Translations under genes and position numbers: made by a program | IMG/VR virus record: IMGVR_UViG_3300042564_006016 | Coordinates: 1 to 54,562 of that record | Reading direction: 5' to 3' (one strand) | Source: a virus | Lineage: Duplodnaviria; Caudoviricetes | Length of the DNA stretch: 54,562 nt | In this document: piece after piece, positions 24,348 through 43,758 of the stretch | Position numbering within the stretch: the stretch's first letter is position 1 | How the letters are laid out: the number at the start of each line of letters is the position of its first letter | Notes under the pieces: model-generated | What the model saw: only the letters and a program-made list of their open reading frames with translations | Databases searched by the model: none | What the model was told of the DNA's origin: nothing

Positions 24348-24372
24348 TGATAAAGTTATTTCCATCTAAAAG

Positions 24373-26493: not shown

Positions 26494-26826
26494 TTATTTA
26501 TTAAAAATACCTTTAATTTTCTCCCAAAAAGTCTTTTTTTCTGCTAATTTATTTATTTTTTCACCTAAAATATTAACTAAATCTCTTATTTCTTGATGAT
26601 TTTTCTCTAAATCTACCAATTTTGTTGTATTATTTGTAATTAAAAAGCTATTTTCCCAAAAATTACGCTCATTTGTGGCTAAAATAGTGTCAAAGTACTG
26701 CATTATTACTAAAAGAGGCTCTGTATTGGACTTTTTCATATCGTCTAGCTCTTTTAGGCTAGCTGTTACTTTTAGATTGAGTAAATCTAGGTTTGTTTGG
26801 TCGGTTGGTGGGTTATTTTGAGTCAT
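26494..26826 (-). CDS. Hypothetical coiled-coil protein (KKTFWEKIKGIF tail)
   Basis: ORF in operon. Confidence 0.7.
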   Translation of the reverse strand: MTQNNPPTDQTNLDLLNLKVTASLKELDDMKKSNTEPLLVIMQYFDTILATNERNFWENSFLITNNTTKLVDLEKNHQEIRDLVNILGEKINKLAEKKTFWEKIKGIFNK

Positions 26827-27046
26827 ATTGAATTGATTCTTCTAGCTCGTCAGCAAATTTGCGAATTTTTTTGATAAATGCTGGTATGTCTAATTCTGCA
26901 TTTTTTAGATTCTGCGCTAAATAGGTTTTGCCAGTTCCTTTTTCTAGGAAAAATTTAATAACTTGTGCCTGAGCAGGAGACAGTATGGTTTTAGGTGGCT
27001 TATAAATAAAGAAAGGAAACTTATTTGAATTGTTATTTTGAGGCAT
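26813..27046 (-). CDS. Hypothetical protein
   Basis: ORF in operon. Confidence 0.6.
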   Translation of the reverse strand: MPQNNNSNKFPFFIYKPPKTILSPAQAQVIKFFLEKGTGKTYLAQNLKNAELDIPAFIKKIRKFADELEESIQYDSK

Positions 27047-27049
27047 ATT

Positions 27050-27175
27050 TTATTTTAAAAGTTTAGTAATTTGGGCTATTAACCAACTTGTAATAGAGGG
27101 AAACAATGACTTTTTTTTGGCTTCTAGTATTTTTGAATGGAGTTCTTCAGAGACTCTGATTCTTATTTCTTTCAT
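27050..27175 (-). CDS. Ribbon-helix-helix (Arc-like) regulator
   Basis: MKEIRIRVSEELHSKILEAK...SITSWLIAQI; ATG 27175. Confidence 0.7.
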   Translation of the reverse strand: MKEIRIRVSEELHSKILEAKKKSLFPSITSWLIAQITKLLK

Positions 27176-27257
27176 ATATAAAAAGTGGATTGAATGTGGA
27201 CAAAAAATGGATAAAAATTGCCACCTTGTCAAATATTTTTCTATTGTTCGGGTATAA

Positions 27258-28556
27258 ATGACTAAGGAAAAGTTGTTAAATCAAGAAATTATAGTTGACC
27301 AAGAGCCAAGTGGAATTATTTATCGTGCATATTTACCATTTTTTAGAGATAATGTTTCAAGCCTAAAAACTGATGATGAGGGTAGAAAATATAGGGTTGT
27401 AGAAGGAGCTATAATTGTTGACAGGCGTTCTATACAAGAACAGATGGGTTGGACTGATGAAGATGTAAGTGACCATTTTACTACTTTGTGGGAAGTGGAC
27501 GGATTTTTAACCGATGTGAGAAAGATTAACTTTGATTTTAGGCACAACGGAATTTCAACTGGTGCAATTGGAGAAAGAAGCTGGAAAGTAGATGACTATG
27601 AGATCCAAATTGATGACAAAATTCTAAAAGTTCCTGCAAGAATGTTGGCTGTAAGAGTTTATGAGGACAACCAAATAAGAATTAAAGGTAAAAATGGCGA
27701 AACAATAGAAGACGGAAGTTTATTAACTAATATTGAAAATGGGAGAGTCTTTACTTGGTCTGTGGAGTTTAAACCAGTAAGGCAAATGACAACTAGAAGT
27801 GGTTTAACCCTTTTTAAGACCTATCACACTCCTAGGATTTCCTTCCTAGATGTAACCCAAGGTATTCCTGACGCTGGTGGGTTCACTTTAAGGAGTTATT
27901 TAGAAGATAATTTAATTAACAACCAAACCAACCAACCAAATATGTCTTTAGAACAATTACAACAAGCACTTGCCAACGGCGAGATCACACAAGAACACCT
28001 TAGGTCTTTACTAGAGGCTGAGGAAACTAAAACTCCAGAAACTGACTCAGCAACCCCAGAGTCCCAAAGATCTGAATCAAAAATTGAGATTAAAGTAGGA
28101 GAGCCAACAGGTGAAGGGACTGATACTGCTCCAAAAGAAGGGGAAGGCGAGGAAACTCCACCAGCTCCAGCCGAAGCCGATCAAAATGGTGATGGTGAGC
28201 TTAGCGACAGCGAGGTAAGATCGTATATTAAAGAGCTTAAAAGAAGTTACGATAGTCCAGCCATGATCTCCGAGAAATTAGGTGAGCTTGAAAGATCTTT
28301 TGGTGAAATAAACGAAAGAATGAACGGCATGATAACAGCTGGACAAACAAAAACAGAAACCGACAAGTCCGAAGCAGAAATGCAAAGACAATATGAAGCT
28401 ACTCTTTCAGATATTCCAAACGAAGCCGAAAGCCAAGTAAGTGGCGATATGAAACGCCAGCTTGACCCAGCTGATAAGCCTAAGGTGGAACCTAAAAGAT
28501 TCACTCTTGAAGATATGCAAGCAGCTGAATTAAAAGCAAAACTATATCACAAATAA
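27258..28556 (+). CDS. Prohead protease-scaffold fusion
   Basis: Upstream of MCP; DFRH, WSVEF, RISFLD protease-like motifs; acidic/coiled C-terminal half. Confidence 0.7.
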   Translation: MTKEKLLNQEIIVDQEPSGIIYRAYLPFFRDNVSSLKTDDEGRKYRVVEGAIIVDRRSIQEQMGWTDEDVSDHFTTLWEVDGFLTDVRKINFDFRHNGISTGAIGERSWKVDDYEIQIDDKILKVPARMLAVRVYEDNQIRIKGKNGETIEDGSLLTNIENGRVFTWSVEFKPVRQMTTRSGLTLFKTYHTPRISFLDVTQGIPDAGGFTLRSYLEDNLINNQTNQPNMSLEQLQQALANGEITQEHLRSLLEAEETKTPETDSATPESQRSESKIEIKVGEPTGEGTDTAPKEGEGEETPPAPAEADQNGDGELSDSEVRSYIKELKRSYDSPAMISEKLGELERSFGEINERMNGMITAGQTKTETDKSEAEMQRQYEATLSDIPNEAESQVSGDMKRQLDPADKPKVEPKRFTLEDMQAAELKAKLYHK

Positions 28557-28567
28557 ATTATTTATAT

Positions 28568-29767
28568 ATGCCAAATTTTAACGAAAATATTGTTGAATTT
28601 TTAAACAACAGTAGTTCAAATTTTACATCTACAGTAGATGTACAAAGAAAAGCAGCTTTAGTCGAAGCTATGGAATCTACCAAAGGAGACTTTATAAGAT
28701 CTATCGACTTAATGTTAATTCACGATGAAGAACTCAGAAATGAATTTAACTACGAAGCTAGGAAACAAGGCAAAAGTGGAGTAGCTTACCCTATTCTTGC
28801 TAGAGGCTTGTTTGAAGCAGGTAAAATTGATGAGAAAACTTATCAGCGTGCTGCTGGAGTACTAGACACAGTAACCAACCCAGGAGGTGCAAATTTCCTA
28901 CAAACTACAGTAGCAAACTTTGTTGCTGAAACTATTGATGAAGTAGGTTTAGTAGCTAAAGAAGTCCAAAAATTTGACTTAAAAGGTGAAGGTAATTTAC
29001 AAATCCCTATTTTTAATCCAAAACTTAAATCTGCTTTTGCTGCTAACACTGCAAATTACACTGATTTAGGTTCGACTATTGAAAGTGGAATTGGTTTTAT
29101 TACTTTAAACTCACAAAAAGTTGGTGCTTACACTCAGCTAAGACCAGATTTCATGAATAAACTAGGTGCTGGAAGATTACAATTTATCTTAAAGCAACTT
29201 GCTGAAGCTCAAGCTCGTGCTTATGATGATGTCATTTTAAATGGTACTGGTTCTTCTCCAATCCCAACAGGTATGAATCAAAATGCTTTAACAGCAGGAA
29301 CAGATTTCGCAGTTGGTTCAGACATTTTTGATACATTGTTAAATGCAATCGAAACTATTTCTGACCGTAGAGCTGGAAGAACTTCTGATATCAGAATATT
29401 CATGAATACCTCAGCTAAACAAGAATTTGTTAAATTAGAAAGACTTTTGTCTAACGATAGAACTAATATCTTGCAAAGTTCAAAAGGAGGGCTAACAATT
29501 GCAGATTATCCTGTAATTATTACTGATGTAATTTTGAATACCAATGCTACAGCACCTGCAAATAAGACATCTTTAGTAACTGTTGGTTATGCTAATCAAT
29601 ACTACTGGGGTAACTCTAAAGCACCACAAGTTGTATCTGATAGTTCAGTTGGGTTCTTAAGTGAAACTGAGACTCTTAGAGTTTCTGGAATGGCTGATGG
29701 AAAACCAGCATTTAACAATGCATTTGCTAAATTTACAGTAACAACTGGAGTAGAAGGAACTTTATAA
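28568..29767 (+). CDS. Major capsid protein (HK97 fold)
   Basis: GGANFL, ITLNSQKVGAY, D..ILNGTGS..PTGM, IADYPVI, DGKP...AF. Confidence 0.9.
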   Translation: MPNFNENIVEFLNNSSSNFTSTVDVQRKAALVEAMESTKGDFIRSIDLMLIHDEELRNEFNYEARKQGKSGVAYPILARGLFEAGKIDEKTYQRAAGVLDTVTNPGGANFLQTTVANFVAETIDEVGLVAKEVQKFDLKGEGNLQIPIFNPKLKSAFAANTANYTDLGSTIESGIGFITLNSQKVGAYTQLRPDFMNKLGAGRLQFILKQLAEAQARAYDDVILNGTGSSPIPTGMNQNALTAGTDFAVGSDIFDTLLNAIETISDRRAGRTSDIRIFMNTSAKQEFVKLERLLSNDRTNILQSSKGGLTIADYPVIITDVILNTNATAPANKTSLVTVGYANQYYWGNSKAPQVVSDSSVGFLSETETLRVSGMADGKPAFNNAFAKFTVTTGVEGTL

Positions 29768-29777
29768 TCTTAATTTT

Positions 29778-29972
29778 ATGACTTATATAGTAAAAGCTAA
29801 CTTTACACTTGGAAACAAGACTTATTTTATAGGCGAGACTTTTGAAGAAAAATCCTTTGCTAATTTAGCAATCCTTCCTTATTTTCTACAAAATGATAGT
29901 GTAGAAATTTTAAAAGAAAAGCCTGTAAAAAAGGAAACAGCTGAAAAAACTGAACAAAAAAAACCTAACTAA
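29778..29972 (+). CDS. Small head-associated protein
   Basis: Typical small ORF after MCP (YIVKANF..Y.IGE). Confidence 0.65.
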   Translation: MTYIVKANFTLGNKTYFIGETFEEKSFANLAILPYFLQNDSVEILKEKPVKKETAEKTEQKKPN

Positions 29973-29975
29973 CCA

Positions 29976-30680
29976 ATGCCATCTCTAACTCTCTCTGAAA
30001 TTAAAGCTTTAATCCCTATAGAAGGGGAAATAAGCGATAGTCTCTTAGAGAGTTATAGTGAAATTGTAACCACAGAAGCGGATTTGCAACTTAGAAATAT
30101 TTTTGCCAGTCCGCTTCCTACGGTTACTGAAGCTAATTGTTATAACTACCAAACCTACAACACTTATGGAACTAGATTTGTGTCAGTTACCGCTTGGCAA
30201 CCAACAGCCTTGGTAATCAAAAAAATCTGTGTAGATAAATCAGAAAGTACAACTTTAACTGAGACTCCTTTAGTTTTTGGTACTGATTATGTGTTTTTTT
30301 ATGGCAAAACTGGTGGTAAAATACCTGGAATAAACCAACCTGTAACAGGTGTAAAACTAATAAACAATTATCTAAGCTATAACGAAAGGTTAAGATTGGC
30401 TGGTACTTACGGCTGGCAAGTTGGCTACCCTAGCAATGTTAAAGTGGCTTTAGCTCAAGCAATTGTAGATCTAGCAGGGCAAGCTCAAACTAACGCTGAA
30501 AATGGCGGGAGTAGTATTGCTTTTAGGATTAAAAACCGAACAGTCGAAAAAGAAATTGACCCAAAAATGCTTGAAAAACAAAACGCTGAAGCTAAAAATA
30601 TTTTAAGCGACCCAGAAACTCAATCAATTTTTAGAAGTTATCTAAACGCTGGTGATGAACTAATAAGTACAATTTGCTAA
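29976..30680 (+). CDS. Head-tail adaptor/connector
   Basis: Position; GTYGW...P.NVK.AL motif. Confidence 0.65.
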   Translation: MPSLTLSEIKALIPIEGEISDSLLESYSEIVTTEADLQLRNIFASPLPTVTEANCYNYQTYNTYGTRFVSVTAWQPTALVIKKICVDKSESTTLTETPLVFGTDYVFFYGKTGGKIPGINQPVTGVKLINNYLSYNERLRLAGTYGWQVGYPSNVKVALAQAIVDLAGQAQTNAENGGSSIAFRIKNRTVEKEIDPKMLEKQNAEAKNILSDPETQSIFRSYLNAGDELISTIC

Positions 30681-31025
30681 ATGACTTTTGCTAAACACCC
30701 AGTAACAATAACAGAAATTAAAGAGGTTGTAGTAGGAAAAACCCCAACCAAACAATCTACAGTTTTAATTGATAACAAAAGAATGGTTGTTGGCAGATAC
30801 CCAGCTTACCAAACCCTACAAATTAACAAACAATATGGACTAAATGCTCAGGCTTTGTATTTTATTTTATCTAAAAAACAAGACCCAATTATACCTCAAA
30901 ACTCAAGAGTTGTAACAAACATAAACGGTTTAGAAATTAAAGGGAAAGCCCTTTTTACCGAACCTTTCGAAGAGTCTGAAATTGGTTTTACTTTTGAAAC
31001 TACTTTTATGTCGGATAATCAGTAA
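30681..31025 (+). CDS. Putative head closure protein
   Basis: Position and size. Confidence 0.5.
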   Translation: MTFAKHPVTITEIKEVVVGKTPTKQSTVLIDNKRMVVGRYPAYQTLQINKQYGLNAQALYFILSKKQDPIIPQNSRVVTNINGLEIKGKALFTEPFEESEIGFTFETTFMSDNQ

Positions 31026-31033
31026 TTTAAATC

Positions 31034-31066
31034 GAGGGCTAATACTCGTCGCACCTTTTAGCCCTC
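31034..31066 (+). promoter_or_regulatory. Hairpin whose loop is complementary to the tail tube and TMP leaders
   Basis: GAGGGCTAA/TTAGCCCTC stem; loop CGTCGCACC matches GGTGCGACG at 32263 and 34647. Confidence 0.55.
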
Positions 31067-31082
31067 AACTTAACTTATTTTT

Positions 31083-31241
31083 ATGTCTCAAACTAAACCT
31101 CAACCAAAATACGAAATTGTAAGAAAAGATTTAATAAAAAATCAGTCTGAATTAGAAAACTTGCTTGAAAAAAAAGGTAATTTGGAGCTTTTATTAAGTC
31201 TTGGCTATATTGCTCCCGCAGAAGAGACAAAATCTAAATAA
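31083..31241 (+). CDS. Small hypothetical protein (52 aa, MSQTKPQPKY...)
   Basis: Read manually; fills the gap in the structural operon. Confidence 0.6.
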   Translation: MSQTKPQPKYEIVRKDLIKNQSELENLLEKKGNLELLLSLGYIAPAEETKSK

Positions 31242-31249
31242 AGCTAAAT

Positions 31250-31666
31250 ATGGCAATATTAACACAAAAAGGCTGGGTTGGTTTTGCAAGCGGGAATAAA
31301 AATATAATAATTACTGACTTTTTTAGCTTATTAAAAAAAAGTCAGCCTAAAATTGATAAAATGGCAACTGAAACTGTCAAAGAGCAGTTTGGGCTTTTTA
31401 ACCCGCCTATTAACTATGACAATGACCCAGGTAAAAGTACTGGCCTAACCAAAGCCGATACTAAAGCTTACTCTTTTTTTGGTGACAAAAATCTTGTTAT
31501 TAGATTTAAAACCCCAAACAACAGACCTTCAAGAGATGGGCAACTTAGAGGTTATGCTGTTTTTTCTTTGCTTGGGTTGTCAACCTCCAAAAAATACGGC
31601 GAGAGAAATTGGCTCAAAAAAGGAGCTGAAAAAACCTTTGAAAAAATTGCAAATAGTGAATTTTAA
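31250..31666 (+). CDS. HK97 gp10-like neck/tail completion protein
   Basis: STG.T, YA.F..LG.STSKKYG.RNWL. Confidence 0.6.
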   Translation: MAILTQKGWVGFASGNKNIIITDFFSLLKKSQPKIDKMATETVKEQFGLFNPPINYDNDPGKSTGLTKADTKAYSFFGDKNLVIRFKTPNNRPSRDGQLRGYAVFSLLGLSTSKKYGERNWLKKGAEKTFEKIANSEF

Positions 31667-31674
31667 CTTTAAAT

Positions 31675-32259
31675 ATGTTCGGTAATTATAAATACAACCC
31701 AAAAAATCCAGACGCTCTTTTAGAGAGTGACTTAGACAACTTTGTTTTTTGTCTTTTAAGTGATGTCTTGGAAGATTCAAGTAATTTGGATTTAAAAAAC
31801 GAAACTAAAATAAATTATGCTTTGATGACAGATGTAAATTTAGATGGTAAAAAGTTTTTGCTTTCATTTCAGCTAAACAAATTAGACCCTAGAAATGCAG
31901 ATTTCCTTAAAAAATTTGATGACACAGGTAAATATGCTGATGTTGTTTTTGAAATTGCTTTGATGACGCCTTTGGACACTAAAATTTTAGATACTGAAGA
32001 TTATTACAGTGGTGTAGAATTTAAAAGAATTTTTGAAACCTTGATTTTAGCTATTACTGATAATCATAACGCAGATCTTAACACTCCAATTGCTCCAAAC
32101 TACAAAGTAACTTTAGACAACGACAAAGTGCTTAGTAATAACCTAGAATTAAATAAAACTGATAATAATGCACAATATTTTATTAGCCAGATTAACGGAA
32201 ATACAGGCAATTACTTGACAGGATTAACAAACATTCTTTTTAGTATAGTTAAAGAGTAA
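31675..32259 (+). CDS. Putative tail terminator
   Basis: Position before the major tail protein. Confidence 0.5.
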   Translation: MFGNYKYNPKNPDALLESDLDNFVFCLLSDVLEDSSNLDLKNETKINYALMTDVNLDGKKFLLSFQLNKLDPRNADFLKKFDDTGKYADVVFEIALMTPLDTKILDTEDYYSGVEFKRIFETLILAITDNHNADLNTPIAPNYKVTLDNDKVLSNNLELNKTDNNAQYFISQINGNTGNYLTGLTNILFSIVKE

Positions 32260-32293
32260 TTGGGTGCGACGCTAATTTAACTACTGTTATTTA

Positions 32294-33577
32294 ATGTCCA
32301 ACATAAACTACGCACCCAAACTCAACCACGGAGGAGCCGCACAGTATAACGCAACTTACCGATACTGGCAATACAAAGATGATGTTGTAAGCAACTATCT
32401 ATATTTAGATGGCTCTACCTTAGCGACTCCTACAGTTTCAGGAACTGCTACCGCAACTCTTAGAACTGTTGACGGACCAAAAGGAGGAGAAATTGTTTAT
32501 TCTAGTAAAGACCCTAGCAACAAACCTTTGACAGGTAGAAATAACCCACCTTATTACAGAATTGCAAATGGAGCTACCGCGACTTCTCCAATTAAATTTA
32601 ATTTTTCAAGGAATTTAAGCTTGGATTATTGGAGTTCTATTACTATTCGACAAGTAGGAGGAAGCCCTGTAGCTGGTAAATTTAAGCTTAGATCAAGTGG
32701 AACTAACGAAAGAATTTTTAGCTTTACGACTGCTGGAACTGGCTGGGCAAACTTCAATTTCCAAAATTTGGTTGACGGGGTTGCTGGTGCTGGTGGAGAT
32801 CCTGTATGGGCAAGCATTACTGAAATTGAATTTACTCTGGATACTGTAAGTACTTCAATTGATGTAGCTTTTGTACAGACTGCAAATACTGTTCAACAGT
32901 TGATAGGCTACCAGCCAAATATAGAATTTGGTTGTATTAGTGAAGCTGAAATGGAAGACGCTATGGAGTCTGCTGATATTACTTGCGGACAAAGAGTTGA
33001 GGGTAAAATCCCAACTAGCGATGCAGTTTCGGTGGTTGTAAAATCTCAAACTGAAGATCCTGAGGCTATGGCTTTGAGAACTGGAGAAGTAGTAGTACAA
33101 GACAGGCATTACTATGATATAACCTATAACAGTCCTACAATTGGAAGGCGTGCTGTAAGTACTGGGGTAACAACTATTGACTCTGGATTGGATATTGTAA
33201 ATGTATATTATGGCGACATAAAACTAGCAAAGGTAGAAAGTGCTACTAATGTTCCTGTAAATGGTTTTCACTACACTGGTACTACTCTAACCACCAACAC
33301 CACTCAAATTGCTACAGGACAAATTTTGACCATTAAGACTAAAGTTTCGGCAATCATGAATGTAAGAAAGAGAAAAGCTTTGAAATTAGCACCTCTTGGA
33401 GAATTAACTTTTAATAGAAAAACCAAACAAGGAATCACAAAAATTGTGGTAATGCCTAAAGCCCAACCAATGATTGAACCTGAGTCTGCTGGCGATGTAG
33501 ATACTGTAGGTACTAAATTCTTTGCATACTTTGATAATGCAAGTGATAGCTACTACACAGAAGGCTACCAAGGCTAA
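32294..33577 (+). CDS. Major tail tube protein with extra inserted domains
   Basis: Directly upstream of chaperone and TMP; Gly/Thr-rich beta composition. Confidence 0.6.
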   Translation: MSNINYAPKLNHGGAAQYNATYRYWQYKDDVVSNYLYLDGSTLATPTVSGTATATLRTVDGPKGGEIVYSSKDPSNKPLTGRNNPPYYRIANGATATSPIKFNFSRNLSLDYWSSITIRQVGGSPVAGKFKLRSSGTNERIFSFTTAGTGWANFNFQNLVDGVAGAGGDPVWASITEIEFTLDTVSTSIDVAFVQTANTVQQLIGYQPNIEFGCISEAEMEDAMESADITCGQRVEGKIPTSDAVSVVVKSQTEDPEAMALRTGEVVVQDRHYYDITYNSPTIGRRAVSTGVTTIDSGLDIVNVYYGDIKLAKVESATNVPVNGFHYTGTTLTTNTTQIATGQILTIKTKVSAIMNVRKRKALKLAPLGELTFNRKTKQGITKIVVMPKAQPMIEPESAGDVDTVGTKFFAYFDNASDSYYTEGYQG

Positions 33578-33616
33578 CTTGACTAAAAAATAAAGCTAAT
33601 TATATGATAGGGGTGT

Positions 33617-34363
33617 ATGAGCGACACCCCTTTAGCTGTTGAGGCTGAAAATAGCCTTTTAAAAGCCAAAACTGATTTTTTAAAAGAATTTAAAATACCT
33701 GATTTTGTTTGTTATTCGATAGATAATAAAGCAGTTAGTCTTGTAGTAGAGTATCGTTTGAACTATGAAAATTTTAAGGCTACTAAAAATGTAGATAATA
33801 AAGTACAAGCTGAGCTTATAAATTTTATAACCAACGAAATAGAAGAGGTGGAGCAATTTTTAGCTAATACAGAAAAACCAGAAAATTATAATACCTTAAA
33901 AGAAGAAAAAGAAACTTTAGAAAATATTTTAAAAAACAACCCAACCCTTCCAAAAGAAAAGCAAACTGAAAATATAAAAAGATTAGAAACAATAGAATTA
34001 GAATTAAGTAACTTAAGAAATGATCTTTTTTTTAAAGAGATTGAAAATACTAAAGATACTCAAAAATTATTAGCTACTCCTAAATTAGCTAAATTAGTTT
34101 TAAGCTTTATGACTGCGGATAACACGGTGACTGAGTATAGAGAAATAGATCCTGAAGGCAAAGAAGCTATTTTAAAAAATAAAATTGTTAAATATTTTTT
34201 TGAAGGTCACGACAAAACAAAAGAGGAAGTTGAATCAATCAAAAAGAAAATGACTATTAGTAAATTTAAAGTTCTTTGTGTAGGGATCTGCCAAGAGCCT
34301 GAAAATGGTTTAGATAGTTCTATTACAGATTTTTTCGTAAAAACCCTGAGTATTCAAAATTAG
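33617..34363 (+). CDS. Tail assembly chaperone (gpG-like)
   Basis: Between tail tube and TMP; slippery T TTT TTC at 34330-34336. Confidence 0.7.
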   Translation: MSDTPLAVEAENSLLKAKTDFLKEFKIPDFVCYSIDNKAVSLVVEYRLNYENFKATKNVDNKVQAELINFITNEIEEVEQFLANTEKPENYNTLKEEKETLENILKNNPTLPKEKQTENIKRLETIELELSNLRNDLFFKEIENTKDTQKLLATPKLAKLVLSFMTADNTVTEYREIDPEGKEAILKNKIVKYFFEGHDKTKEEVESIKKKMTISKFKVLCVGICQEPENGLDSSITDFFVKTLSIQN

Positions 34364-34623
34364 AAAAAACTGCAGGGGAAGACCCAAACAAAGGGCAATA
34401 TCTTATTTGGTCTTTTCTGCCTGATATTTTTAGATTATGCATGAAAATATACAAAGACCTAGATTATGTAAAACCCCATAGTGTCAGAGAACAATATGAA
34501 ATGTATTTATTGCACCTTAACGACAAAGGGTTTCAATATAAAAATGGAAGAAACGCTAAGGGTGAAGATGTTTATATAGCCTCAGTGCCTTATTTGCTTA
34601 AAGTTGACAAAAGCAAACCTTAA
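34330..34623 (+). CDS. -1 frameshift extension of the tail chaperone (gpGT-like)
   Basis: -1 frame from the slippery site is open (RKNPEYSKLEK...) into the 34441..34623 ORF. Confidence 0.7.
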   Translation, partial: FFRKNPEYSKLEKTAGEDPNKGQYLIWSFLPDIFRLCMKIYKDLDYVKPHSVREQYEMYLLHLNDKGFQYKNGRNAKGEDVYIASVPYLLKVDKSKP

Positions 34624-34670
34624 AAGCTTAAATTTGTGTGATACAGGGTGCGACGGTTAATAACCAACCT

Positions 34671-37037
34671 GTGGCAACTAGAGAACTCACATATGATATA
34701 GTACTCCGAACTGAAAAAGCAGTAGCGGAGATTAAATCAATGTTGGCTAAAAGCAACAAAGAAGCTGAAAAACAAGGCAAAACGGCTGGTGAAAATTACG
34801 CTAAAGGAGTTAAAAGTGAAATTGATAAACTCAAAATAGATATTTTGCAAGGAGCAAAAGTTGATAAGTTTAAATTAAATCAACTTAAAAACGAAATACA
34901 AGCTGGGTTAGCTAGTGGGCAACTAAACAATGCTGAAGCATTAGGCTTATTTAATTCTCTTTTTGGAGTGGCAAAAGATCAAGGAGCTGAAGTTGCTAAA
35001 CAATTTAGCAAGGCGTTTAAAATAACTATCAATGATAGAATCAATAAAATTTTAGGAAATTTAACACAGCCTTTTAAAACTTTAACTAAAAATCTCAGTG
35101 TTGATATTAAAAACGGGTTTAATTATGGAATAAATGAAATAGGAAAAACAAGTTTAAAAGATCTAACAGAAAATACAAAAAACACTACAGCTAAAATTAT
35201 TGAAAACATTAAAAAAATACCTTCACAGATTGGCGATTCTTTGGTTTGGGTAAAAAAGAATATTTTAGATTTTGATTTAAATAAATTAATTTACAAAGAT
35301 TTCCCAGCTTTTACTAAGCAAGTATTTAATAACTTTAAAGGGTTTGCTTCTGGGGCGTTTGAAAGCTTAAAGCAGCTGCCTAGTGTTTTATACAACCTAA
35401 ACCTTAATAAAGTCTTTAGTGGGCTTGGTGGATTTAGCTCAGCAATTCAAGGTGGAATCAAAAACCTTGGAAATTTTGGTTCTATTTTAGGGGAAATAAC
35501 CTCACAAGGAATTAATGGTTTTGGCAAAATGGCTTCGTCTATAGCTGGTGGGCTAGGGAATGCTTTAGCAAGTGCAGGAAAAGGGGCTTTAAATTTAGCT
35601 GGAAATTTAGCTGGAGGAGTTACTACAGCTGGAGTTGCTGGAGTAGTAGCGGGCGGGGCGGGGTTATTTGGACTTGGTGCTTTTGGGGTAAATTTAGCAA
35701 GCCAAATCCAAAGCACAAGAATTTCTCTTGAAACCATGCTTGGTAGTGCTGAAAATGCTAAAGGGCTAATGACAGAGATTACAGCTTTTGCCAAAAAAAC
35801 ACCTTTTAACAGATTGGAATTATTTGATTATTCTAAACAATTGATCGGAGTAGGTATTGCTCAAAAAGACATGATAGGAACTTTAAATAAGTTAGGAAAT
35901 GTTGCCGCTGGTTCTGGAGCACCTTTGCAAAATATAATTACAAACTATGGACAAATTAGAGCTTCAAACAGAGCCTACACTCAAGATTTAAAGCAATTTA
36001 GCAACTTTGGTATTCCTATTTGGGAAAAACTAGCTAAAAACATGGGCATTACTGTTGAACAATTAAGAACTGGGATTGATACCCAAAAAATAAAAGTAAA
36101 TTTTCAAGAAGTAGATAAAGTTTTAAACCAATTGACTAGCTCAGGCGGACAATATTTTGATTTAATGCAAAAGAAATCGGGAACATTTGAGGGGGCAATG
36201 AGTAACTTACAAGATACCTTTGAAAGTATGGTGCTTAAATTTATGGGGGTTGATGATACTGGAAATATAAAAGAAGGTAGTTTTTTTGATATTGCACAGG
36301 ACAAGGCTTTGAAGTTTCAAGGCTGGTTAATGGAAAATGAGGCTCAAATTGGAGAGTGGGGAGGTAAAGTATTTACCAAAATTGGGCAAGGAATGCAGAT
36401 GGCTTGGACTGATATGGTACAGCCAGTTCTTTTAGACCTTCAAGACTGGTTTAATAATGGAGGAAAAGAAGCTATTAAAAGTTTCATGCAAAATGGGTGG
36501 CAGGAAATAGTAAAAGGGTTCACTTATTTTAAAGATGTTGTTTATCCAGACGCAAAAAAGAAACTTGATGAATTTAAAGCTTATATGGCAAGCGAACAAG
36601 GGAAAAAGGATATTAAAGATTTTACTGATTTTATGAAAGGACTTTGGGAAGCTATAAAATTTGTCGCATACTGGTCTGGTGAGGCTATAAAAGGAATTGA
36701 CGGGCTAATTGGGAAGTGGAGAGAATTAAGCAACGCTACTAAATTAGGGGATAGTAGCTTTAGCTTTGCTGGAGTTGCAGCAAACCCTTGGGTTGCAATT
36801 TCGCAGTTAATAGGAGGCAAAAGAGCAAGTGGTGGTCCTGTAGATCCAGGTAAACTCTACGAAGTCGGAGAAAACAACAGAGCCGAATTACTTATGATGA
36901 ATGGCAGACAATACATGATACCTGGGAATAAAGGACAGGTTTTGAATCAAAGCCAGATCGACAACCGTCAAATCAATAGTGGGAACAATGTCACTCAGTA
37001 CATTTTTGGCAATAATTCTTTACAATACGATTTTTAA
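34671..37037 (+). CDS. Tail tape measure protein
   Basis: ORF track 34638..37037; GTG 34671 (MATRELTYDIVL) preferred; ETMLGS..A..FAKKTPF, SNLQD, RASGGPV..G..YEVGE. Confidence 0.92.
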   Translation: MATRELTYDIVLRTEKAVAEIKSMLAKSNKEAEKQGKTAGENYAKGVKSEIDKLKIDILQGAKVDKFKLNQLKNEIQAGLASGQLNNAEALGLFNSLFGVAKDQGAEVAKQFSKAFKITINDRINKILGNLTQPFKTLTKNLSVDIKNGFNYGINEIGKTSLKDLTENTKNTTAKIIENIKKIPSQIGDSLVWVKKNILDFDLNKLIYKDFPAFTKQVFNNFKGFASGAFESLKQLPSVLYNLNLNKVFSGLGGFSSAIQGGIKNLGNFGSILGEITSQGINGFGKMASSIAGGLGNALASAGKGALNLAGNLAGGVTTAGVAGVVAGGAGLFGLGAFGVNLASQIQSTRISLETMLGSAENAKGLMTEITAFAKKTPFNRLELFDYSKQLIGVGIAQKDMIGTLNKLGNVAAGSGAPLQNIITNYGQIRASNRAYTQDLKQFSNFGIPIWEKLAKNMGITVEQLRTGIDTQKIKVNFQEVDKVLNQLTSSGGQYFDLMQKKSGTFEGAMSNLQDTFESMVLKFMGVDDTGNIKEGSFFDIAQDKALKFQGWLMENEAQIGEWGGKVFTKIGQGMQMAWTDMVQPVLLDLQDWFNNGGKEAIKSFMQNGWQEIVKGFTYFKDVVYPDAKKKLDEFKAYMASEQGKKDIKDFTDFMKGLWEAIKFVAYWSGEAIKGIDGLIGKWRELSNATKLGDSSFSFAGVAANPWVAISQLIGGKRASGGPVDPGKLYEVGENNRAELLMMNGRQYMIPGNKGQVLNQSQIDNRQINSGNNVTQYIFGNNSLQYDF

Positions 37038-37039
37038 TT

Positions 37040-38188
37040 ATGTCTTTGTCACCACAAATAAAACAAGTACTATATCAATTTGGAAATGGATTTAATGATA
37101 ACTATTATATTTTTAACAAAGCTGAACTTAAAAATATTTCAAAAATAAGCTTAAAAACAAATCATTTTGAAAGCTTTTCTCAAGATGGATTTACTAAAAT
37201 TAATGTTGGTACTAGAAACAAAAAAACTAAACAAGAAATGGCAGTAGATTTTTTGGTAAAAATAACAGATTATTTTGATTTAAATTATGTTCAACAAGCT
37301 TTTAATACCTCTGAAAAGAAATTATTTTATTTTATTTTAGATAGAAACAATAATTTAGAATTTTATTTTCAGCCAAATTGTGATCCGACTCTGATTCCAG
37401 AAACAGGGAATCAATCAGTAGAAAATTTAGGACAAGAAACTTTTGTAAAAACCGTAAGCTTTGCTTGCCCGCCTTTTATTTATAAATGCAAGCCAAATGT
37501 AGCTTATTTTGATAAAAATGCTTTGAGCCAATTTATACCCAGATATGTTTTGCTTGCAACTGATGATGGGGCTTCTTACTATAACTCAACTGTAGTATAT
37601 GATCAAGGGATTACCACTGCTACGGTGTTGATCAGCTCACTTACTTTAGATCAAAAATTAGCTCTTTTTGTAGATAAGTCACAACCTGATAATGCTATAG
37701 TCTATACTGATAAAATATTTGATTTGTCTGATCTTACTGTAGATACAAGCCAAGCCGTGCTAAATACAACTTTAACTAGCAATACACCAGCAAATATACT
37801 TTTAACTAGCTTTTTTAACGGCACAACAGCGAACAACGAGGCTTATTTAATAGAGATGGGGGGTTTGAGTCAAGGTCAATCTCTAAGAATTCAAAATACA
37901 AGTAACGGCTCTGATTTACAAATAACTTGGTTAAATAGTGTGGCAAGCCCTACCGCCATTAGCTATAATTCAATTAAAAATAGTTGGTACAATACAGCCA
38001 CAAAAGCTGAGATTGACCCTACTTTTTATAGTTTTATTTATCCTAGCAAAAGACCATTATTTTTTAGCCCTTTAGCAACTCAAAATATGACTATTAATAT
38101 AAACCCAGAGAGTTTAACTCTGACAAAAAACACAACAGGGAACCTCACTGTAAAAATAGAGGCTTTACAAACTTACCACACAATATAA
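37040..38188 (+). CDS. Putative distal tail (Dit-like) protein
   Basis: Immediately after TMP; size. Confidence 0.55.
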   Translation: MSLSPQIKQVLYQFGNGFNDNYYIFNKAELKNISKISLKTNHFESFSQDGFTKINVGTRNKKTKQEMAVDFLVKITDYFDLNYVQQAFNTSEKKLFYFILDRNNNLEFYFQPNCDPTLIPETGNQSVENLGQETFVKTVSFACPPFIYKCKPNVAYFDKNALSQFIPRYVLLATDDGASYYNSTVVYDQGITTATVLISSLTLDQKLALFVDKSQPDNAIVYTDKIFDLSDLTVDTSQAVLNTTLTSNTPANILLTSFFNGTTANNEAYLIEMGGLSQGQSLRIQNTSNGSDLQITWLNSVASPTAISYNSIKNSWYNTATKAEIDPTFYSFIYPSKRPLFFSPLATQNMTININPESLTLTKNTTGNLTVKIEALQTYHTI

Positions 38189-38189
38189 T

Positions 38190-39071
38190 ATGACTCAACT
38201 CTCACCAGCTTTAGCATTAGCAACTCAAACAAACCCAGCTGACTTAATTACAGCGGACAGCGTGAACAGGCAAACCAGAAATAGCGGAGGTCTTGTAGAT
38301 ATAGTCACCGCCTTTGCAGGTAAAGACGAAATTACAGATTCTAGCAGTGCAACTATTACTTGTATAGCCAACTCTACAATCCGAGTAAATGCTTGGAGGG
38401 CTACAGCTCAAACAATTCAATTGCCCGCTTGGAGTGCTAATCACCCGCCAATTTTGATTAGAACAAATAACTATGCGGTAAAAACAATTCAAAGGAATGG
38501 TACTGATACAATAAATAATCCTTGGAATTATAGCACAGCTCCAACTGGAACGACATATAATTTATATCTACCAGGAGAAACTGTAAGGTTAGTTCCCAAT
38601 AAACTTGTTAATTTTTGGGAAGTTGAGCCAGTACAAACGCCAGTAAACCTATACCGATGTGAAGCTTTTTTATCAGCAGATCAAAATCTTGGTACGGGTA
38701 CTTTTGATAGAATTAATTTGAATACTGAAGTGTACGACTTTGGCTCTTTTTATGATAATGTTACAAATTTTAGAGCCACGCCTTTAATCCCTGGTCTTTA
38801 TGGGGTGTGGGGAAGCTATACAATCAGAAATGCTACAACTACTGAAGTCCAAGGAAGCTGGAGAAAAAATACAACAAGGCTAAAAGTGATTGGTCAAGAA
38901 AATTTAACTGGGGTGCAAACAAGCCAACAATCTGGTTCTTTTGAAATTTTGATGAATGGCACAACTGATTATATTGAGATGAGAGCTTATTGCGGAACCG
39001 CTTCTGGGATTGCTTTTGGGGGGGCTTCTGATATAAATACAATGGGGGTTCGATTAATAAGCAGGATATAG
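38190..39071 (+). CDS. Minor tail / receptor-binding protein with C1q/TNF-like C-terminal domain
   Basis: YD.G.FYD..TNFRATP.IPGLY.V.G...MNGTTDYIE. Confidence 0.6.
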   Translation: MTQLSPALALATQTNPADLITADSVNRQTRNSGGLVDIVTAFAGKDEITDSSSATITCIANSTIRVNAWRATAQTIQLPAWSANHPPILIRTNNYAVKTIQRNGTDTINNPWNYSTAPTGTTYNLYLPGETVRLVPNKLVNFWEVEPVQTPVNLYRCEAFLSADQNLGTGTFDRINLNTEVYDFGSFYDNVTNFRATPLIPGLYGVWGSYTIRNATTTEVQGSWRKNTTRLKVIGQENLTGVQTSQQSGSFEILMNGTTDYIEMRAYCGTASGIAFGGASDINTMGVRLISRI

Positions 39072-39106
39072 TTGCCAAATTCCAAACTTTTATTTATTTT
39101 AAAATT

Positions 39107-39631
39107 ATGTTCAATCAATTCAAATCTACGCTTTTTAAATCAATCAATTTAAATCCTGAAAGTTACCCAGAGCTTTTGCCTTTTTTACAAGATATTCGTC
39201 TTGTAGGCGACAAAGTAGGTATAAATTTTTTGATGAAAATTCGTGATAAAAATGCAAATATAAATGAATTTGACACTGAAAAAGAAATTATTGTGAATCA
39301 CTCAAATTATATCGAAGGGGCTTATAACCAAAGTACTGATACTTGGGAAGCTTATTTTGATATGCAAGATAACAAAGATTTAGTAATAGCACTTCAAAAT
39401 TATGTAGACAATTTTACTGGAGAAATAAACCCAAAATTTAGTGATTTAGATTTTAATCAAAAAAGATCTTTTGTAGAAGGTTTGGAAAATTACATCAAAG
39501 AAGTTAAACAAAGAATAGTTGAAAAAGAAACCGACATCGAAAAAACAAACCGAGAGATTAAAGAAATGAAATCTGATAACGAAACTTTTGACGATTTGAG
39601 GCTGGAAGCTAAAAAGAAAGGTTTGATTTAA
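39107..39631 (+). CDS. Hypothetical tail-module protein
   Basis: ORF; C-terminal coiled coil. Confidence 0.7.
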   Translation: MFNQFKSTLFKSINLNPESYPELLPFLQDIRLVGDKVGINFLMKIRDKNANINEFDTEKEIIVNHSNYIEGAYNQSTDTWEAYFDMQDNKDLVIALQNYVDNFTGEINPKFSDLDFNQKRSFVEGLENYIKEVKQRIVEKETDIEKTNREIKEMKSDNETFDDLRLEAKKKGLI

Positions 39632-39636
39632 AAAAA

Positions 39637-40827
39637 ATGCCGTTAGTAATTAATGTTATAGACCCTTTCGACCCAACTTTTGGGATAGTACGCCGTAGCG
39701 TGATAGATAACGCTCACATCACAAAAAAAGAGCTAAAATTGAGATTAGATAGTTTCCACGAGTTAGAAATGGAAATAACCCCACAAAGTACAGCTTGGAA
39801 AATGTTTCAAGACCCAAATAAAAGGTTTGGTGTAATGGTAGAGACTGATTATTTAACACTTCCATTTTGCCAAAAAGACCCAGCCTACGAAATAAACAGT
39901 CAAACTGGAATCATGAAAATCAAGTTTGCAAGCATGAGTTATTTTTTGCAATACACCAAAAGTTTTCCAAATCAGATTTTTAACGGGCAACTGAGTGGGC
40001 TTTTGGCTAATTTAAATCAAGCCTTTGTTTATACTAAAATAAACACTGATAAAACTTTGTATAACTTTACAGTTGCTAGAGATTTAAGCGATTTTGAAGT
40101 ACTTAAAAACGCTACTAATGCTTATCAATGGCGAGATAATGGAGTTGTACAAGTTGGAAATGTTTTGAAACCTCAAATCTTGTACGGTAAGATAGCTGAA
40201 ATAGGAAGTTATTACAGAACTGATCCAAATAATAGGTTGGAATGCAAAGGGCTGACAATTAGTGATGAGCTTACGAATAATAGCCTTGATCAAGCTGTAG
40301 CCGAGATTCAACCAATTGTAGTTGGTGATTATATTACTTATTTAGATTGCTACAGTTCAACATCTGGAATTGACGGTGTAAATTCTCAAATAAACATCAA
40401 TCCTAGTAATGTCGCACAAAACTCAGATTTTCCTTTGATTAGTTTTGTGGTTGGAGGTAAAACAGTTTGGTATATTAAAAATAACTTTGCCCCAGTTTAT
40501 CCAGCCAAATATGAAACTTTAAAAGTTGACGCAACTTCTAATACTGAAGACTCTGGAGGCAATCAGTTAGTTAATCAATCTTTAACACCACAACAGATAT
40601 ATCAAGAAGGGGTTGACTTTTTGCGAACCAAAAAACAATCAATCGCTTTGAGCCAAAAAATAACAAGTTTTAAAAGAGTATTTTTGCCTGGCAATGAATG
40701 CTTTGTAAATATCAATAGAACTGTAGAAATAAACGGTGTAACAACCTCTATTTTGCAACTAAACCAACCAATGATATTTAAAGAAGGTGACGGGGTAACT
40801 TTTGACCTTAATGTAATACAAAACTAA
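39637..40827 (+). CDS. Putative baseplate hub (Tal-like) protein
   Basis: Position; LPGNEC.V motif near the C-terminus. Confidence 0.5.
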   Translation: MPLVINVIDPFDPTFGIVRRSVIDNAHITKKELKLRLDSFHELEMEITPQSTAWKMFQDPNKRFGVMVETDYLTLPFCQKDPAYEINSQTGIMKIKFASMSYFLQYTKSFPNQIFNGQLSGLLANLNQAFVYTKINTDKTLYNFTVARDLSDFEVLKNATNAYQWRDNGVVQVGNVLKPQILYGKIAEIGSYYRTDPNNRLECKGLTISDELTNNSLDQAVAEIQPIVVGDYITYLDCYSSTSGIDGVNSQININPSNVAQNSDFPLISFVVGGKTVWYIKNNFAPVYPAKYETLKVDATSNTEDSGGNQLVNQSLTPQQIYQEGVDFLRTKKQSIALSQKITSFKRVFLPGNECFVNINRTVEINGVTTSILQLNQPMIFKEGDGVTFDLNVIQN

Positions 40828-40828
40828 T

Positions 40829-41701
40829 ATGAACCCTGTAAATATTGTAACCCCAGAACCTGCCAAAGACCCTAAAACAGGGTTTTTAGTAAGTTTAGAT
40901 AACGCTGATGTAAATTTAAAAAGCAAGGAAAGCCAGTTTTTCGATCAGGTTAAAAAAGAATTGCAAGGGAATGTTTTGAATGCTCCAAGTATAATCAGCC
41001 AAAAATTTGTTTTGTTTGATCAAAGCTCAGTTCTTCTTGGCTTAGAGGCGGGATTTGCTAATTACTCGGCTGGTTTTATACCTACTTTTCAAGATTATTT
41101 ACAAAATCCTATTAAATATAAAATAAACAATATAAATGCTATAACTTTGGGGACTTCAATAACTCTTGGGGGTTCGCCTTTTGGGTTTTCAACAATTGCA
41201 GACACAAATTATAGTGTTGACATGTATTTGTCTTCTTATTTATACGAAAATCAAACAAAACAACCAATTAATTTTGATGGAAGTTTTAGACAGCCTAAAA
41301 AGCTTTTGAGTGCTAAAACTGTTTTTACCCACACAAAAAATGGTGCTGTTGTTGATGTAAGTTATACAATAAGCAGACCGTTTATTGATTTTAATTTTAC
41401 AGATTATATTAATGGCAGGGGTTTAATTGGCTCAAATACAGATTTCACAGTTACACCAGAAAAAATAACCCAAGCACAATATAATCTTTTACGAGATACT
41501 GATACTTTTTTATACACATTTTTTGGTTATGATTTTGCAAGTTATAGTCTTTTAACAGGAAATAATAAAATTCATTTTGAGCAATTAATTTCTGGATATA
41601 TTTCAGGGGGAACTTTTATTGCACCTTTTTTAACTCCTAAAGTAGAAGGCTATTTAAATTATTTTGGTCAAATGGCGACTTTTGATTCAATCAATTCCTA
41701 A
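40829..41701 (+). CDS. Minor tail protein
   Basis: Position after hub. Confidence 0.5.
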   Translation: MNPVNIVTPEPAKDPKTGFLVSLDNADVNLKSKESQFFDQVKKELQGNVLNAPSIISQKFVLFDQSSVLLGLEAGFANYSAGFIPTFQDYLQNPIKYKINNINAITLGTSITLGGSPFGFSTIADTNYSVDMYLSSYLYENQTKQPINFDGSFRQPKKLLSAKTVFTHTKNGAVVDVSYTISRPFIDFNFTDYINGRGLIGSNTDFTVTPEKITQAQYNLLRDTDTFLYTFFGYDFASYSLLTGNNKIHFEQLISGYISGGTFIAPFLTPKVEGYLNYFGQMATFDSINS

Positions 41702-41750
41702 ATTTGCCAAAAACAATTTTATAGTACATTATGCACACATAAAAATTTAT

Positions 41751-42332: not shown

Positions 42333-42481
42333 TTACTTCCTAGTAACCCAAAAAATAAAAGGCAAAGAATAGCCAACAAAAACCATTAGAATTGCGTGAG
42401 ATAAAATAGACATACAAAAAGACCTAAACTATATTTAATCAATTGACAAGTTTCAGCCTTTAGTGGTAATAAGGAGAGTAA

Positions 42482-43531: not shown

Positions 43532-43758
43532 ACAAAGTAAAAGAGTTTTTCACACACGAATTTCCGAGAACGGACAGCCCTTTTACTATTTCTTTTGTAG
43601 TTGTTTTTTTCTTTTTAAACCCTATTATTGTTTTGATCTATGGAAAATATACCGAACCAACGACTTTAATGTATTATATACTAATGACAAGCCTTAACCT
43701 TTGGGCAACCGCTCTTTTTGTTATGGTTTTGAGATTTTTAAAATTTTTAAAGAAATAA
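43528..43758 (+). CDS. Small 2-TM membrane protein (holin candidate)
   Basis: Two hydrophobic segments; follows endolysin. Confidence 0.55.
   Translation: MNKVKEFFTHEFPRTDSPFTISFVVVFFFLNPIIVLIYGKYTEPTTLMYYILMTSLNLWATALFVMVLRFLKFLKK

Follow-up and report, generated by a model that had tools for sequence, protein, structure and literature searches.

Why the leaders of two tail genes should share a GC-rich word with the loop of a distant upstream hairpin is the question raised by the phage tail operon examined here. To our knowledge, how very unequal amounts of tube, chaperone and tape measure protein are set from one late transcript is understood for only a few model phages; where the host starts translation without Shine-Dalgarno pairing, tail protein dosage is essentially unexplored. 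The window, by which we mean the whole stretch of DNA analysed (54,562 nt), is a contig from an uncultured phage of a freshwater lineage, obtained from a lake.

The genes concerned form a canonical siphophage tail module on the + strand, comprising a major tail gene, overlapping -1 frameshift chaperone frames and a tape measure gene. The sequence-only reading had assigned these three identities, each of which is upheld by evidence of a different kind. The putative major tail (tube) protein (427 aa, 32294..33577) had no Pfam and no PHROG matches, and its AlphaFold model was too poor for use (pLDDT 45); its assignment follows from its gene position directly upstream of the G/GT and tape measure genes and from Atlas feature hits to clusters carrying YomU_Tube (0.86) and Phage_tube_2 (0.76), which serve as leads only, and the protein remains putative. 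The tail assembly chaperone G (33617-34363; G/GT span 33617..34623) is recognised by a slippery heptamer, T TTT TTC (34329-34335), for a -1 frameshift into GT, with the -1 frame open from the slippery site to 34623. The tape measure protein gene (34671..37037) matched phrog_9959 (E 2e-53), and the nearest isolates to its product were Bacteroides phages, at 36-37% identity across ~1/4 of the protein.

The exact word common to the three sites is the 9-mer GGTGCGACG, present in exactly three copies in the 54.5-kb contig: two forward copies at the leaders of the tail tube and tape measure genes, and a single inverted copy in the loop of an upstream hairpin, here called hairpin 1. The tenth base, beside the 9-mer, is G at each leader; the loop copy, once reverse-complemented, has A there, equivalent to a G-U pair in RNA. 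A scan of the window returned one copy with one mismatch (at 13243, intragenic), none with two mismatches in intergenic DNA, no copy near the late operon start, the capsid gene or the early regions, and no match to the control, the 9-mer read backwards. All three copies sit in gaps of the tail operon, at leader or intergenic positions only. It is also the sole 9-mer with at least five G/C that is present at least three times in the 5383 nt of intergenic DNA, which was taken to include 34624-34670. Shuffling the intergenic DNA 3000 times gave, on average per shuffle, 0 triples of words with at least seven G/C, 0.001 with at least six and 0.013 with at least five; a comparably GC-rich triple (at least seven G/C) arose in none of the 3000, which bears out the earlier judgement that three matches would be improbable by chance. 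None of 100 whole-window shuffles reached the observed copy count. The motif is real and non-random. The loop copy, both leader copies, a stem around the tail tube start codon and a hairpin at the chaperone start, all noticed in the sequence-only reading, were each found where it had placed them.

Hairpin 1 (31034..31066, + strand) lies in a 57-nt gap with head-completion genes on one side and the first tail-side small genes on the other. Its perfect 9-bp stem, GAGGGCTAA/TTAGCCCTC (arms 31034-31042 and 31058-31066), closes a 15-nt loop (31043-31057), and the predicted fold (-14.6 kcal/mol, z -4.7) was equalled in stability by 0 of 200 shuffles. Within the loop is the anti-box CGTCGCACCT (31047..31056), the reverse complement of the leader box with nine Watson-Crick pairs and one G-U, which is predicted to be single-stranded (opening cost 0.12 kcal/mol). 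The inverted copy falls entirely within this loop, and such loops hold 13 of the 5063 intergenic 9-mer positions (0.26%); as about half of the free positions in the 57-nt gap are loop when the stem is avoided, display in the loop is less striking than this percentage. Measured against an intrinsic terminator, defined as a G+C-rich stem with a 3-8 nt loop and then a T-run, hairpin 1 has no T-run, is unlisted in the terminator scan of 26800-44500, and has a loop larger than a plain terminator needs.

The leader box GGGTGCGACG before the tail tube gene (32262..32271, + strand) starts 2 nt past the stop of a 194-aa gene and 22 nt separate it from the ATG at 32294. It can alternatively be taken up in a stem formed by TTGGGTGCG (32260-32268) and CGCACCCAA (32311-32319), which encloses the tail tube start codon (32260..32319) and is predicted at -16.6 kcal/mol (z -3.3), with 0 of 200 shuffles as stable. 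The same box before the tape measure gene (34646..34655, + strand) lies 22 nt past the GT stop and 15 nt before the GTG at 34671; an alternative start, GTG 34638, would place it inside the ORF. No significant local fold was detected at this leader (z 0.3; 121 of 200 shuffles fold as well). Hairpin 2 (33609..33631, + strand), 32 nt past the tail tube stop, has the stem AGGGGTGT/ACACCCCT, which includes GGGGTGT/ACACCCC at 33610-33616/33624-33630, and holds the chaperone ATG (33617) within its 7-nt loop. The fold around this ATG is predicted at -17.6 kcal/mol (z -4.1; 0 of 200 shuffles as stable), only TTT follows the stem, and the hairpin is unlisted in the same terminator scan. Hairpins 1 and 2 are the only perfect hairpins (at least 7 bp, at least five G-C pairs) in or at the edge of intergenic gaps in the whole window. 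Strong and placed just 3' of the tail tube gene, hairpin 2 may help to set the tube:tape measure ratio by ordinary means.

Comparison rests on the sole relative with DNA, which is 97.5% identical (121 differences over 4858 nt). The loop and both leader boxes are identical in this relative, an outcome expected about half the time for 27 bases at 2.5% divergence. All four intergenic gaps (177 nt) are without change where ~4.4 differences would be expected. The tape measure leader lies in an invariant island of 75 nt (34619..34693), with differences at its edges (34618 and 34694) and none between; its left flank is 11% divergent (11 differences in 34521-34618) and its right flank 34% divergent (39 differences in 34694-34809). 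Because this leader is invariant and has no significant local fold, the conservation points to a constraint on sequence and not on local structure. The inner stem of hairpin 2 is intact in the relative, with five changes in the loop and 3' flank.

Among 17,600 + strand windows from 26.8 to 44.4 kb, the two best duplexes with the loop were those formed by the two leaders. The predicted energies were -20.6 kcal/mol for the tape measure leader (12 pairs including G-U) and -18.9 kcal/mol for the tail tube leader (10 bp), the next best window reaching -15.6 kcal/mol and the background averaging -4.65 kcal/mol (sd 2.7). Opening the targets would cost 11.5 kcal/mol at the tape measure leader and 13.2 kcal/mol at the tail tube leader, for net pairing energies of about -9.0 and -5.6 kcal/mol, respectively. 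A Shine-Dalgarno-like tetramer precedes only 8 of the 91 ORF starts, and the other leaders are AT-rich; with translation starting almost without Shine-Dalgarno sequences, GC-rich structured leaders are exceptional in this genome.

The sequence-only reading had proposed kilobase-range RNA-RNA switching, or a shared protein site, that sets tube:tape measure stoichiometry, and these results bear it out in part. The reading that we tentatively prefer, at less than even confidence, is that the three copies constitute one cis-regulatory set, an RNA-level anti-leader loop acting on two tail-gene leaders. Hairpin 1, at the head/tail boundary of the late operon, would display CGUCGCACCU in its open 15-nt loop, and this loop could base-pair with the two matching GC-rich boxes that precede the major tail protein and tape measure genes. 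It would do so in cis, along the polycistronic late RNA, or else in trans via an upstream RNA fragment ending at hairpin 1. As leaders are mostly AT-rich and without Shine-Dalgarno sequences, ribosome access should depend on leader openness. The tail tube box is otherwise locked in the 9-bp stem around the start codon, so that loop pairing would free this stem; at the tape measure gene the duplex would occupy -15 to -25, within the reach of an initiating ribosome, and would hinder initiation. That the loop opens the first leader and occludes the second, over kilobases or in trans, and so couples the ratio of tail proteins to one RNA element, is a slightly more doubtful proposition. In either form we infer that pairing takes place inside cells, which way it acts at each leader and whether it bears on the tube:tape measure ratio. 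For a dsDNA phage it is unusual that pairing partners should lie 1.2 and 3.6 kb from each other on a message under translation, which counts against the anti-leader reading. So does the prior, since a short intergenic word repeated in a phage is much more commonly a site for a protein or polymerase, and it would be odd for the most abundant tail protein to need an opener.

Parts of the region are covered by assembled RNA-library contigs, which cannot show RNA ends and whose depths cannot rank genes: one contig (one run) stops exactly at 31066, the final base of hairpin 1; another spans 32181-32511 and crosses the tail tube leader from 81 nt upstream of the box; contigs from two runs in two studies end at 33606 and 33611 beside hairpin 2, where no loose end is listed; and the tail tube gene has deeper coverage than the genes immediately before it. 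The end at 31066 and the contig across the tail tube leader are weak, contig-level points in favour of the anti-leader loop. The ends beside hairpin 2 are a weak hint that this hairpin may bear on the tube:tape measure ratio. The higher depth over the tail tube gene would also be expected from a promoter at the box or from differential stability.

Possible without being probable, and nearly as likely as the anti-leader loop, is a shared DNA-binding protein site, in which the 9-mer would be read as double-stranded DNA by one phage or host protein irrespective of orientation. The protein might regulate late genes or form a roadblock, or the word might be a promoter element specific to the phage, in front of the tail tube and tape measure genes; the hairpin-loop copy would simply serve the first gap. 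The nine base pairs are exactly identical in both orientations, as such a site needs, but no dyad or direct-repeat architecture surrounds them, and copies are lacking at the late operon start, the capsid gene and the early regions. A protein site and an RNA site would account equally well for the invariant island around the tape measure leader. Against the DNA site, family searches among 47 ORFs recognised no regulator, sigma-like factor, repressor or integrase. Contig depth over the tail tube gene lends the DNA site weak support; were the word a promoter, however, its inverted copy would drive antisense transcription of the head genes, and the single RNA-library contig that crosses the tail tube box from upstream also tells against it. 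Placement of one copy in the loop of hairpin 1 would be a coincidence. For the extended repeats of cluster K mycobacteriophages, the authors lean to DNA-binding proteins in the available text of their report (PMC3203893), a precedent on the side of a DNA site.

It is unlikely that the four GC-rich elements are independent local RNA structures without mutual contact, hairpins 1 and 2 being 3'-end or stabiliser hairpins that bracket late RNA segments, the stem at the tail tube leader serving for 5' protection or attenuation, and the shared word a product of common descent of intergenic cassettes or of homology patches for module exchange. Significant local folds at three of the four elements would agree with this, but the tape measure leader, the one without such a fold, is the best conserved. 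The two hairpins stand alone as perfect, G-C-rich hairpins in or beside gaps, and the contig ends next to them are a weak hint in the same direction, set against the missing T-runs and their absence from the terminator scan. The block shared with the relative ends just past the tape measure leader, as a recombination joint would, yet this leaves unexplained why 9-10 nt match to the letter at three sites, of which one is inverted and lies in a loop instead of a stem.

Quite improbable is an RNA site in the leader boxes for a translational repressor or processing nuclease, with the inverted copy unrelated or a decoy. Both forward copies do occupy leaders, with comparable spacings to the starts (22 and 15 nt), and the tape measure leader keeps its sequence while lacking a significant local fold; however, RNA from the loop copy has the complementary sequence, to which the same protein could not bind, and no RNA-binding protein was recognised, the sole RNA enzyme found being an RNA ligase (47697-49028). 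A functionless coincidence is very improbable, because, although there are only three copies in a single lineage and the motif was chosen post hoc by a pattern-scanning reader, the shuffles fail to reproduce it and the gaps of one operon hold every copy.

Should the pairing be true, the locus would contain a compact, mutable RNA device made up of a loop and a pair of boxes, an antisense switch that is transcribed together with two virion genes and acts on both simultaneously. Antisense control of virion gene dosage, whether long-range or internal to an operon, could then be tested directly. Should a protein read the word instead, a new late-gene regulator would be implied in this freshwater lineage of uncultured phages. 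In both cases, the three sites provide clean handles for reporter and compensatory-mutation work.

The sequence-only reading knew of no described equivalent, which is too strong a statement given the partial equivalents in P1/P7 C4 RNA, the 5'-3' UTR pairing of icaR and the SAS elements of cluster K mycobacteriophages. In phage late operons, intercistronic hairpins after highly expressed structural genes set differential mRNA levels. Hairpin 2 resembles these in its position directly after the tail tube gene, with contigs of two runs stopping beside it; such hairpins have no need of a word in common with remote leaders, whereas the loop of hairpin 1 is complementary to two of them. Stoperators are asymmetric short sites in short gaps inside operons that are bound by protein and affect transcription; they number in the dozens, are oriented with transcription and belong to temperate phages encoding the repressor. 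The present sites are likewise short, asymmetric and placed within short intergenic gaps inside an operon, but there are three, one of them inverted, and neither repressor nor integrase was found among the 47 ORFs scanned.

Stoperators of cluster A mycobacteriophages are mentioned in the cluster K report (PMC3203893), the available text of which also describes SAS as a short asymmetric word just upstream of starts and nearly absent elsewhere. It is a 13-bp word with a Shine-Dalgarno core, 3-7 bp from starts, in 11-19 copies and at non-structural genes only; a single inverted copy lies apart from any gene start, and a role in translation or the binding of a factor was proposed. As far as that description of SAS/ESAS goes, the arrangement here is alike in repeating a short asymmetric word before starts and adding one inverted copy. 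It differs in comprising three copies of a different 9-10-mer, 15-22 nt from the starts of tail genes, with the inverted copy in a hairpin loop, and in belonging to a phage where Shine-Dalgarno sequences are hardly used. In icaR mRNA of Staphylococcus aureus, as outlined in the text available (PMC3868564), the 5' and 3' UTRs pair, bringing a distal element onto the translation initiation region. The predicted pairing here, if in cis, would similarly be long-range, within one mRNA and at an initiation region; icaR is monocistronic with one target that includes the Shine-Dalgarno sequence, whereas here there are two targets on a polycistronic phage operon and no Shine-Dalgarno sequence takes part.

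An Rfam scan of the whole window at the gathering threshold gave no matches, the C4 family included. C4 is encoded on the strand of its targets and ahead of them, is transcribed in the same RNA and uses its loops for pairing, and RNAs of this type are processed to a small stable RNA acting in trans. The loop of hairpin 1 has this layout, being upstream, on the same strand and complementary to sites 22 and 15 nt before the target starts; the distances of 1.2 and 3.6 kb are unlike the short ones of C4, and the targets are late virion genes where that of C4 is an antirepressor. In phage P1, the C4 antisense RNA and its binding site affect ant expression in the immI region (PMC8201110, in the portion available), and the loop described here, if it pairs as predicted, would resemble the P1/P7 element as a phage RNA acting near the translation starts of genes in its own region.

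The 9-mer GGTGCGACG occurs exactly only three times in the window, twice on the plus strand in the leaders of the tail tube gene (32263-32271) and the tape measure gene (34647-34655), and once on the minus strand (31047-31055), where the inverted copy lies wholly inside the 15-nt loop (31043-31057) of a perfect 9-bp hairpin (hairpin 1, 31034-31066; -14.6 kcal/mol, z -4.7). The two leader copies, or boxes, lie 22 nt before the tail tube ATG at 32294 and 15 nt before the tape measure GTG at 34671. The sequence-only reading had described this arrangement and proposed a genome-wide count of the motif; its coordinates were all correct on recheck against the window sequence. The sole copy with one mismatch is within the tailspike gene, and no intergenic copy with two mismatches was found in the window. 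Among 9-mers containing five or more G/C, GGTGCGACG alone reaches three copies in the 5383 nt of intergenic DNA. Shuffling this DNA 3000 times, with the tape measure leader treated as intergenic, gave a mean number of triples per shuffle of 0 at ≥7 G/C, 0.001 at ≥6 G/C and 0.013 at ≥5 G/C, which bears out the earlier argument that GC-rich matches at leader positions are unlikely by chance. Each of the four consecutive gaps from the head-tail genes to the tape measure gene holds a GC-rich element in this 32% G+C genome, and one word is common to three of these four.

The genome (54,562 bp, ~32% G+C, the whole IMG/VR virus record) is siphophage-type. Family searches identified a large terminase subunit and a portal protein (both encoded on the minus strand), an HK97-fold capsid protein (28568-29767), a gp6-like head-tail connector (29976-30680) and a tape measure protein (34671, or 34638, to 37037; phrog_9959, E 2e-53); no integrase or repressor was recognised in such searches among the 47 ORFs scanned. 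Immediately 5' of the tape measure gene are the two chaperone frames, linked through a -1 slippery site, T TTT TTC (34329-34335), and preceded immediately by a 427-aa gene (32294-33577) whose product is assigned, because of this position, as the putative major tail (tube) protein. This protein had no match in Pfam or PHROG, its AlphaFold model (pLDDT 45) was too poor for a fold search, and an Atlas search returned tube-family leads only. The closest isolate tape measure proteins belong to Bacteroides phages (36-37% identity across about a quarter of the protein) and a Shine-Dalgarno-like tetramer of any kind is present at 8 of 91 ORF starts, making plausible a Bacteroidota-like host whose translation initiation does not involve Shine-Dalgarno pairing. 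One of these eight starts, that of the gene at 42482 (region 42468-42484), has a clear AGGAG 7 nt 5' of its ATG. Near-identical DNA is present in lake-water metagenomes (74-83% of sampled words in 10 DNA runs from 10 studies, these being the runs not flagged as a possible source of the record), and part of the window was also found in six lake metatranscriptome libraries.

Only two perfect hairpins with at least 7 bp and at least five G-C pairs lie in or beside intergenic gaps of the whole window, namely hairpin 1 and hairpin 2 (33609-33631), the latter starting 32 nt after the tail tube stop and carrying the chaperone ATG (33617) in its loop, much as the sequence-only reading had described that ATG as caged. 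The stem that it had drawn around the tail tube start codon, TTGGGTGCG/CGCACCCAA, was likewise recovered and was stabler than all 200 shuffles (z -3.3). A tRNA scan found nothing, and neither terminator-like sites (8 in 26800-44500 versus 10.0 expected from shuffles) nor sigma-70 promoter-like sites (69 versus 60.8) were in excess. An 8-nt Bacteroidota -7 promoter consensus is matched perfectly 9 nt 5' of the tape measure box; this 8-nt match occurs 123 times in the window with 11 of the 123 intergenic, and was given no weight as promoter evidence owing to this lack of intergenic enrichment.

The 15-nt loop was slid along the plus strand from 26.8 to 44.4 kb and duplex energies were computed. 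The tape measure leader gave the best duplex (12 pairs, -20.6 kcal/mol) and the tail tube leader the second best (10 pairs, -18.9 kcal/mol); the next best elsewhere was -15.6, and the mean over the scan -4.65 (sd 2.7). Opening the loop costs 0.12 kcal/mol, and opening the boxes in 230-nt contexts 13.2 (tail tube) and 11.5 (tape measure) kcal/mol. Loop-leader pairing is thermodynamically feasible, because the net energies stay negative (~-5.6 and ~-9.0 kcal/mol, respectively) after these costs. Pairing of the loop would be in competition with the stem formed locally around the tail tube start.

The sole close relative with DNA (G001 / L004) shows 121 differences over 29958-34815 (97.5% identity) and retains all three copies of the 9-mer at identical sites. 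The four gaps (177 nt) are without any change in this relative, where ~4.4 differences would be expected. Conservation is uninformative for the inverted copy, which lies inside a 909-nt difference-free tract, and weak for the tail tube box, inside a 267-nt tract of this kind. The tape measure box is informative, being part of a 75-nt unchanged island (34619-34693) with 11 differences in the 98 nt to its left and 39 in the 116 nt to its right; because this leader is without a significant local fold (z 0.3), the constraint on it looks sequence-specific. The inner stem of hairpin 2 shows no change, against five in the loop and 3' flank. As a separate observation, the capsid region (28490-29958) has no nucleotide alignment to its counterpart in the relative (630-2666) with both flanks 97% identical, and identity in the tape measure gene falls to 82-94% just past the conserved leader, which together point to module exchange at gene boundaries.

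Homologues of the tail tube protein exist with identities of 71% and 35%. DNA of no other relative was obtained by searching the tail tube protein and alignments A1 and A2 against viral, metagenome and genome contigs, the terminase against viral contigs, capsid alignment A3 against viral and genome contigs, or isolate phages at nucleotide and protein level. A pattern scan of IMG/VR viral contigs for the box with shared flanks returned seven stretches, one being the relative L004, and in that scan the pair of leader boxes was found only in this lineage. In the other six, on contigs of 40-54% G+C, the matched copy looks fortuitous. In the pattern-scan locus L012 the 9-mer is also present a second time, within a GC-rich stretch; loci L015 and L017 show the same sequence.

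Contigs from four lake metatranscriptome libraries were mapped on 27000-38500; such contigs show neither RNA ends nor gene ranking, and many of their breaks coincide with strain variation. The longest and deepest lie over the capsid and tail tube genes, one covers 32181-32511 across the tail tube leader, one stops exactly at 31066, the final base of hairpin 1, and others finish beside the base of hairpin 2, at 33606 and 33611 (two runs, two studies, no loose end listed). As weak hints, these ends agree with hairpins 1 and 2 bounding segments of RNA, and the greater depth on the capsid and tail tube genes and its drop after 33611 are likewise hints only; stretches without contigs (e.g. 27000-27767, and in two runs the greater part of the tape measure gene) do not show a lack of transcription. 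The contigs also hint weakly that some, at least, of the large difference between tube and tape measure arises downstream of the tail tube gene, an ordinary arrangement.

Several other repeats were observed in the window. The same 12-nt tandem repeat is present at both contig ends (3-147 and 54293-54561), in one minus-strand ORF running off both ends, and the contig probably represents a complete genome, circular or circularly permuted, that was opened within this repeat; the record is nonetheless classed as linear with an estimated completeness of 52%. The 11-mer CAGTTCACGGC occurs three times on the plus strand (19414, 19731 and 19765), two copies being spaced 34 nt apart within the divergent gap (19718-19949) that separates the terminase-side operon from the gene at 19950, and looks like a putative operator or promoter repeat. 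Near-identical 20-25-nt AT-rich leaders are common to several small early-region genes, one (20638-20662, 20866-20890) before two minus-strand genes (ends at 20637 and 20865) and another before 20940-21182 (minus), 21574 (plus) and 21838 (plus); they look like repeated promoter or leader cassettes. A ~15-nt direct repeat (24286-24300 and 24333-24347, 47 nt apart) occupies the largest non-coding gap (23930-24372), which could be an origin or regulatory region. Within genes, a 9-nt unit is repeated 11.9 times in frame (44810-44916) in a DNA methyltransferase gene (44507-45400, minus), and a small ORF adjoining the portal gene (15511-15732, minus) contains a perfect 36-nt tandem duplication (15617-15689, 2.0 copies). 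A 443-aa RNA ligase carrying an OB-fold domain at its N terminus (47697-49028, minus; Pfam PF21189 and PF09414) is encoded near a dCTP deaminase (46777-47400).

Our tentative first choice for the 9-mer is RNA pairing of the hairpin loop with both leaders, the only reading that covers the letter-perfect identity, the single inverted copy and the open-loop display together. It requires no unknown factor, and has a phage precedent, the C4 antisense RNA of P1 (PMC8201110), and a bacterial one, icaR 5'-3' UTR pairing (PMC3868564). The prior is nevertheless adverse, as short repeated intergenic words are mostly protein or polymerase sites, and the partners are kilobases apart. A putative DNA-binding protein site, which we consider only slightly less likely, leaves the loop placement as coincidence, and neither a candidate regulator among the 47 ORFs scanned nor copies at the operon start or capsid gene were found; such a site does account for the identity and tolerates either orientation, and cluster K mycobacteriophages offer a parallel in their start-associated sequences, one copy of which is likewise inverted (PMC3203893). 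Independent local structures or elements would account for the hairpins with the shared word left over, and are unlikely, while a putative leader RNA-binding factor is improbable. Chance is the least credible explanation, excluded for practical purposes by the shuffle tests. Packaging sites, replication iterons, and Chi-like or nicking sites were rejected because the copies are too few and wrongly placed, as was an invertible or transposable segment between the inverted copies, which would hold essential head-tail genes and has no recombinase.

The loop and two-box feature is genuine and falls in no curated family, because an Rfam scan gave no matches in the window, the 9-mer set lacks the defining features of start-associated sequences and of stoperators, and those of intrinsic terminators are likewise absent. 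A targeted literature search found no exact described equivalent. If the 9-mer is a protein site, it would add a new case to the large class of regulatory repeats in phages. If the loop and leaders pair, they would represent a new form of operon-internal antisense control, acting on two virion genes of a phage not dependent on Shine-Dalgarno sequences.
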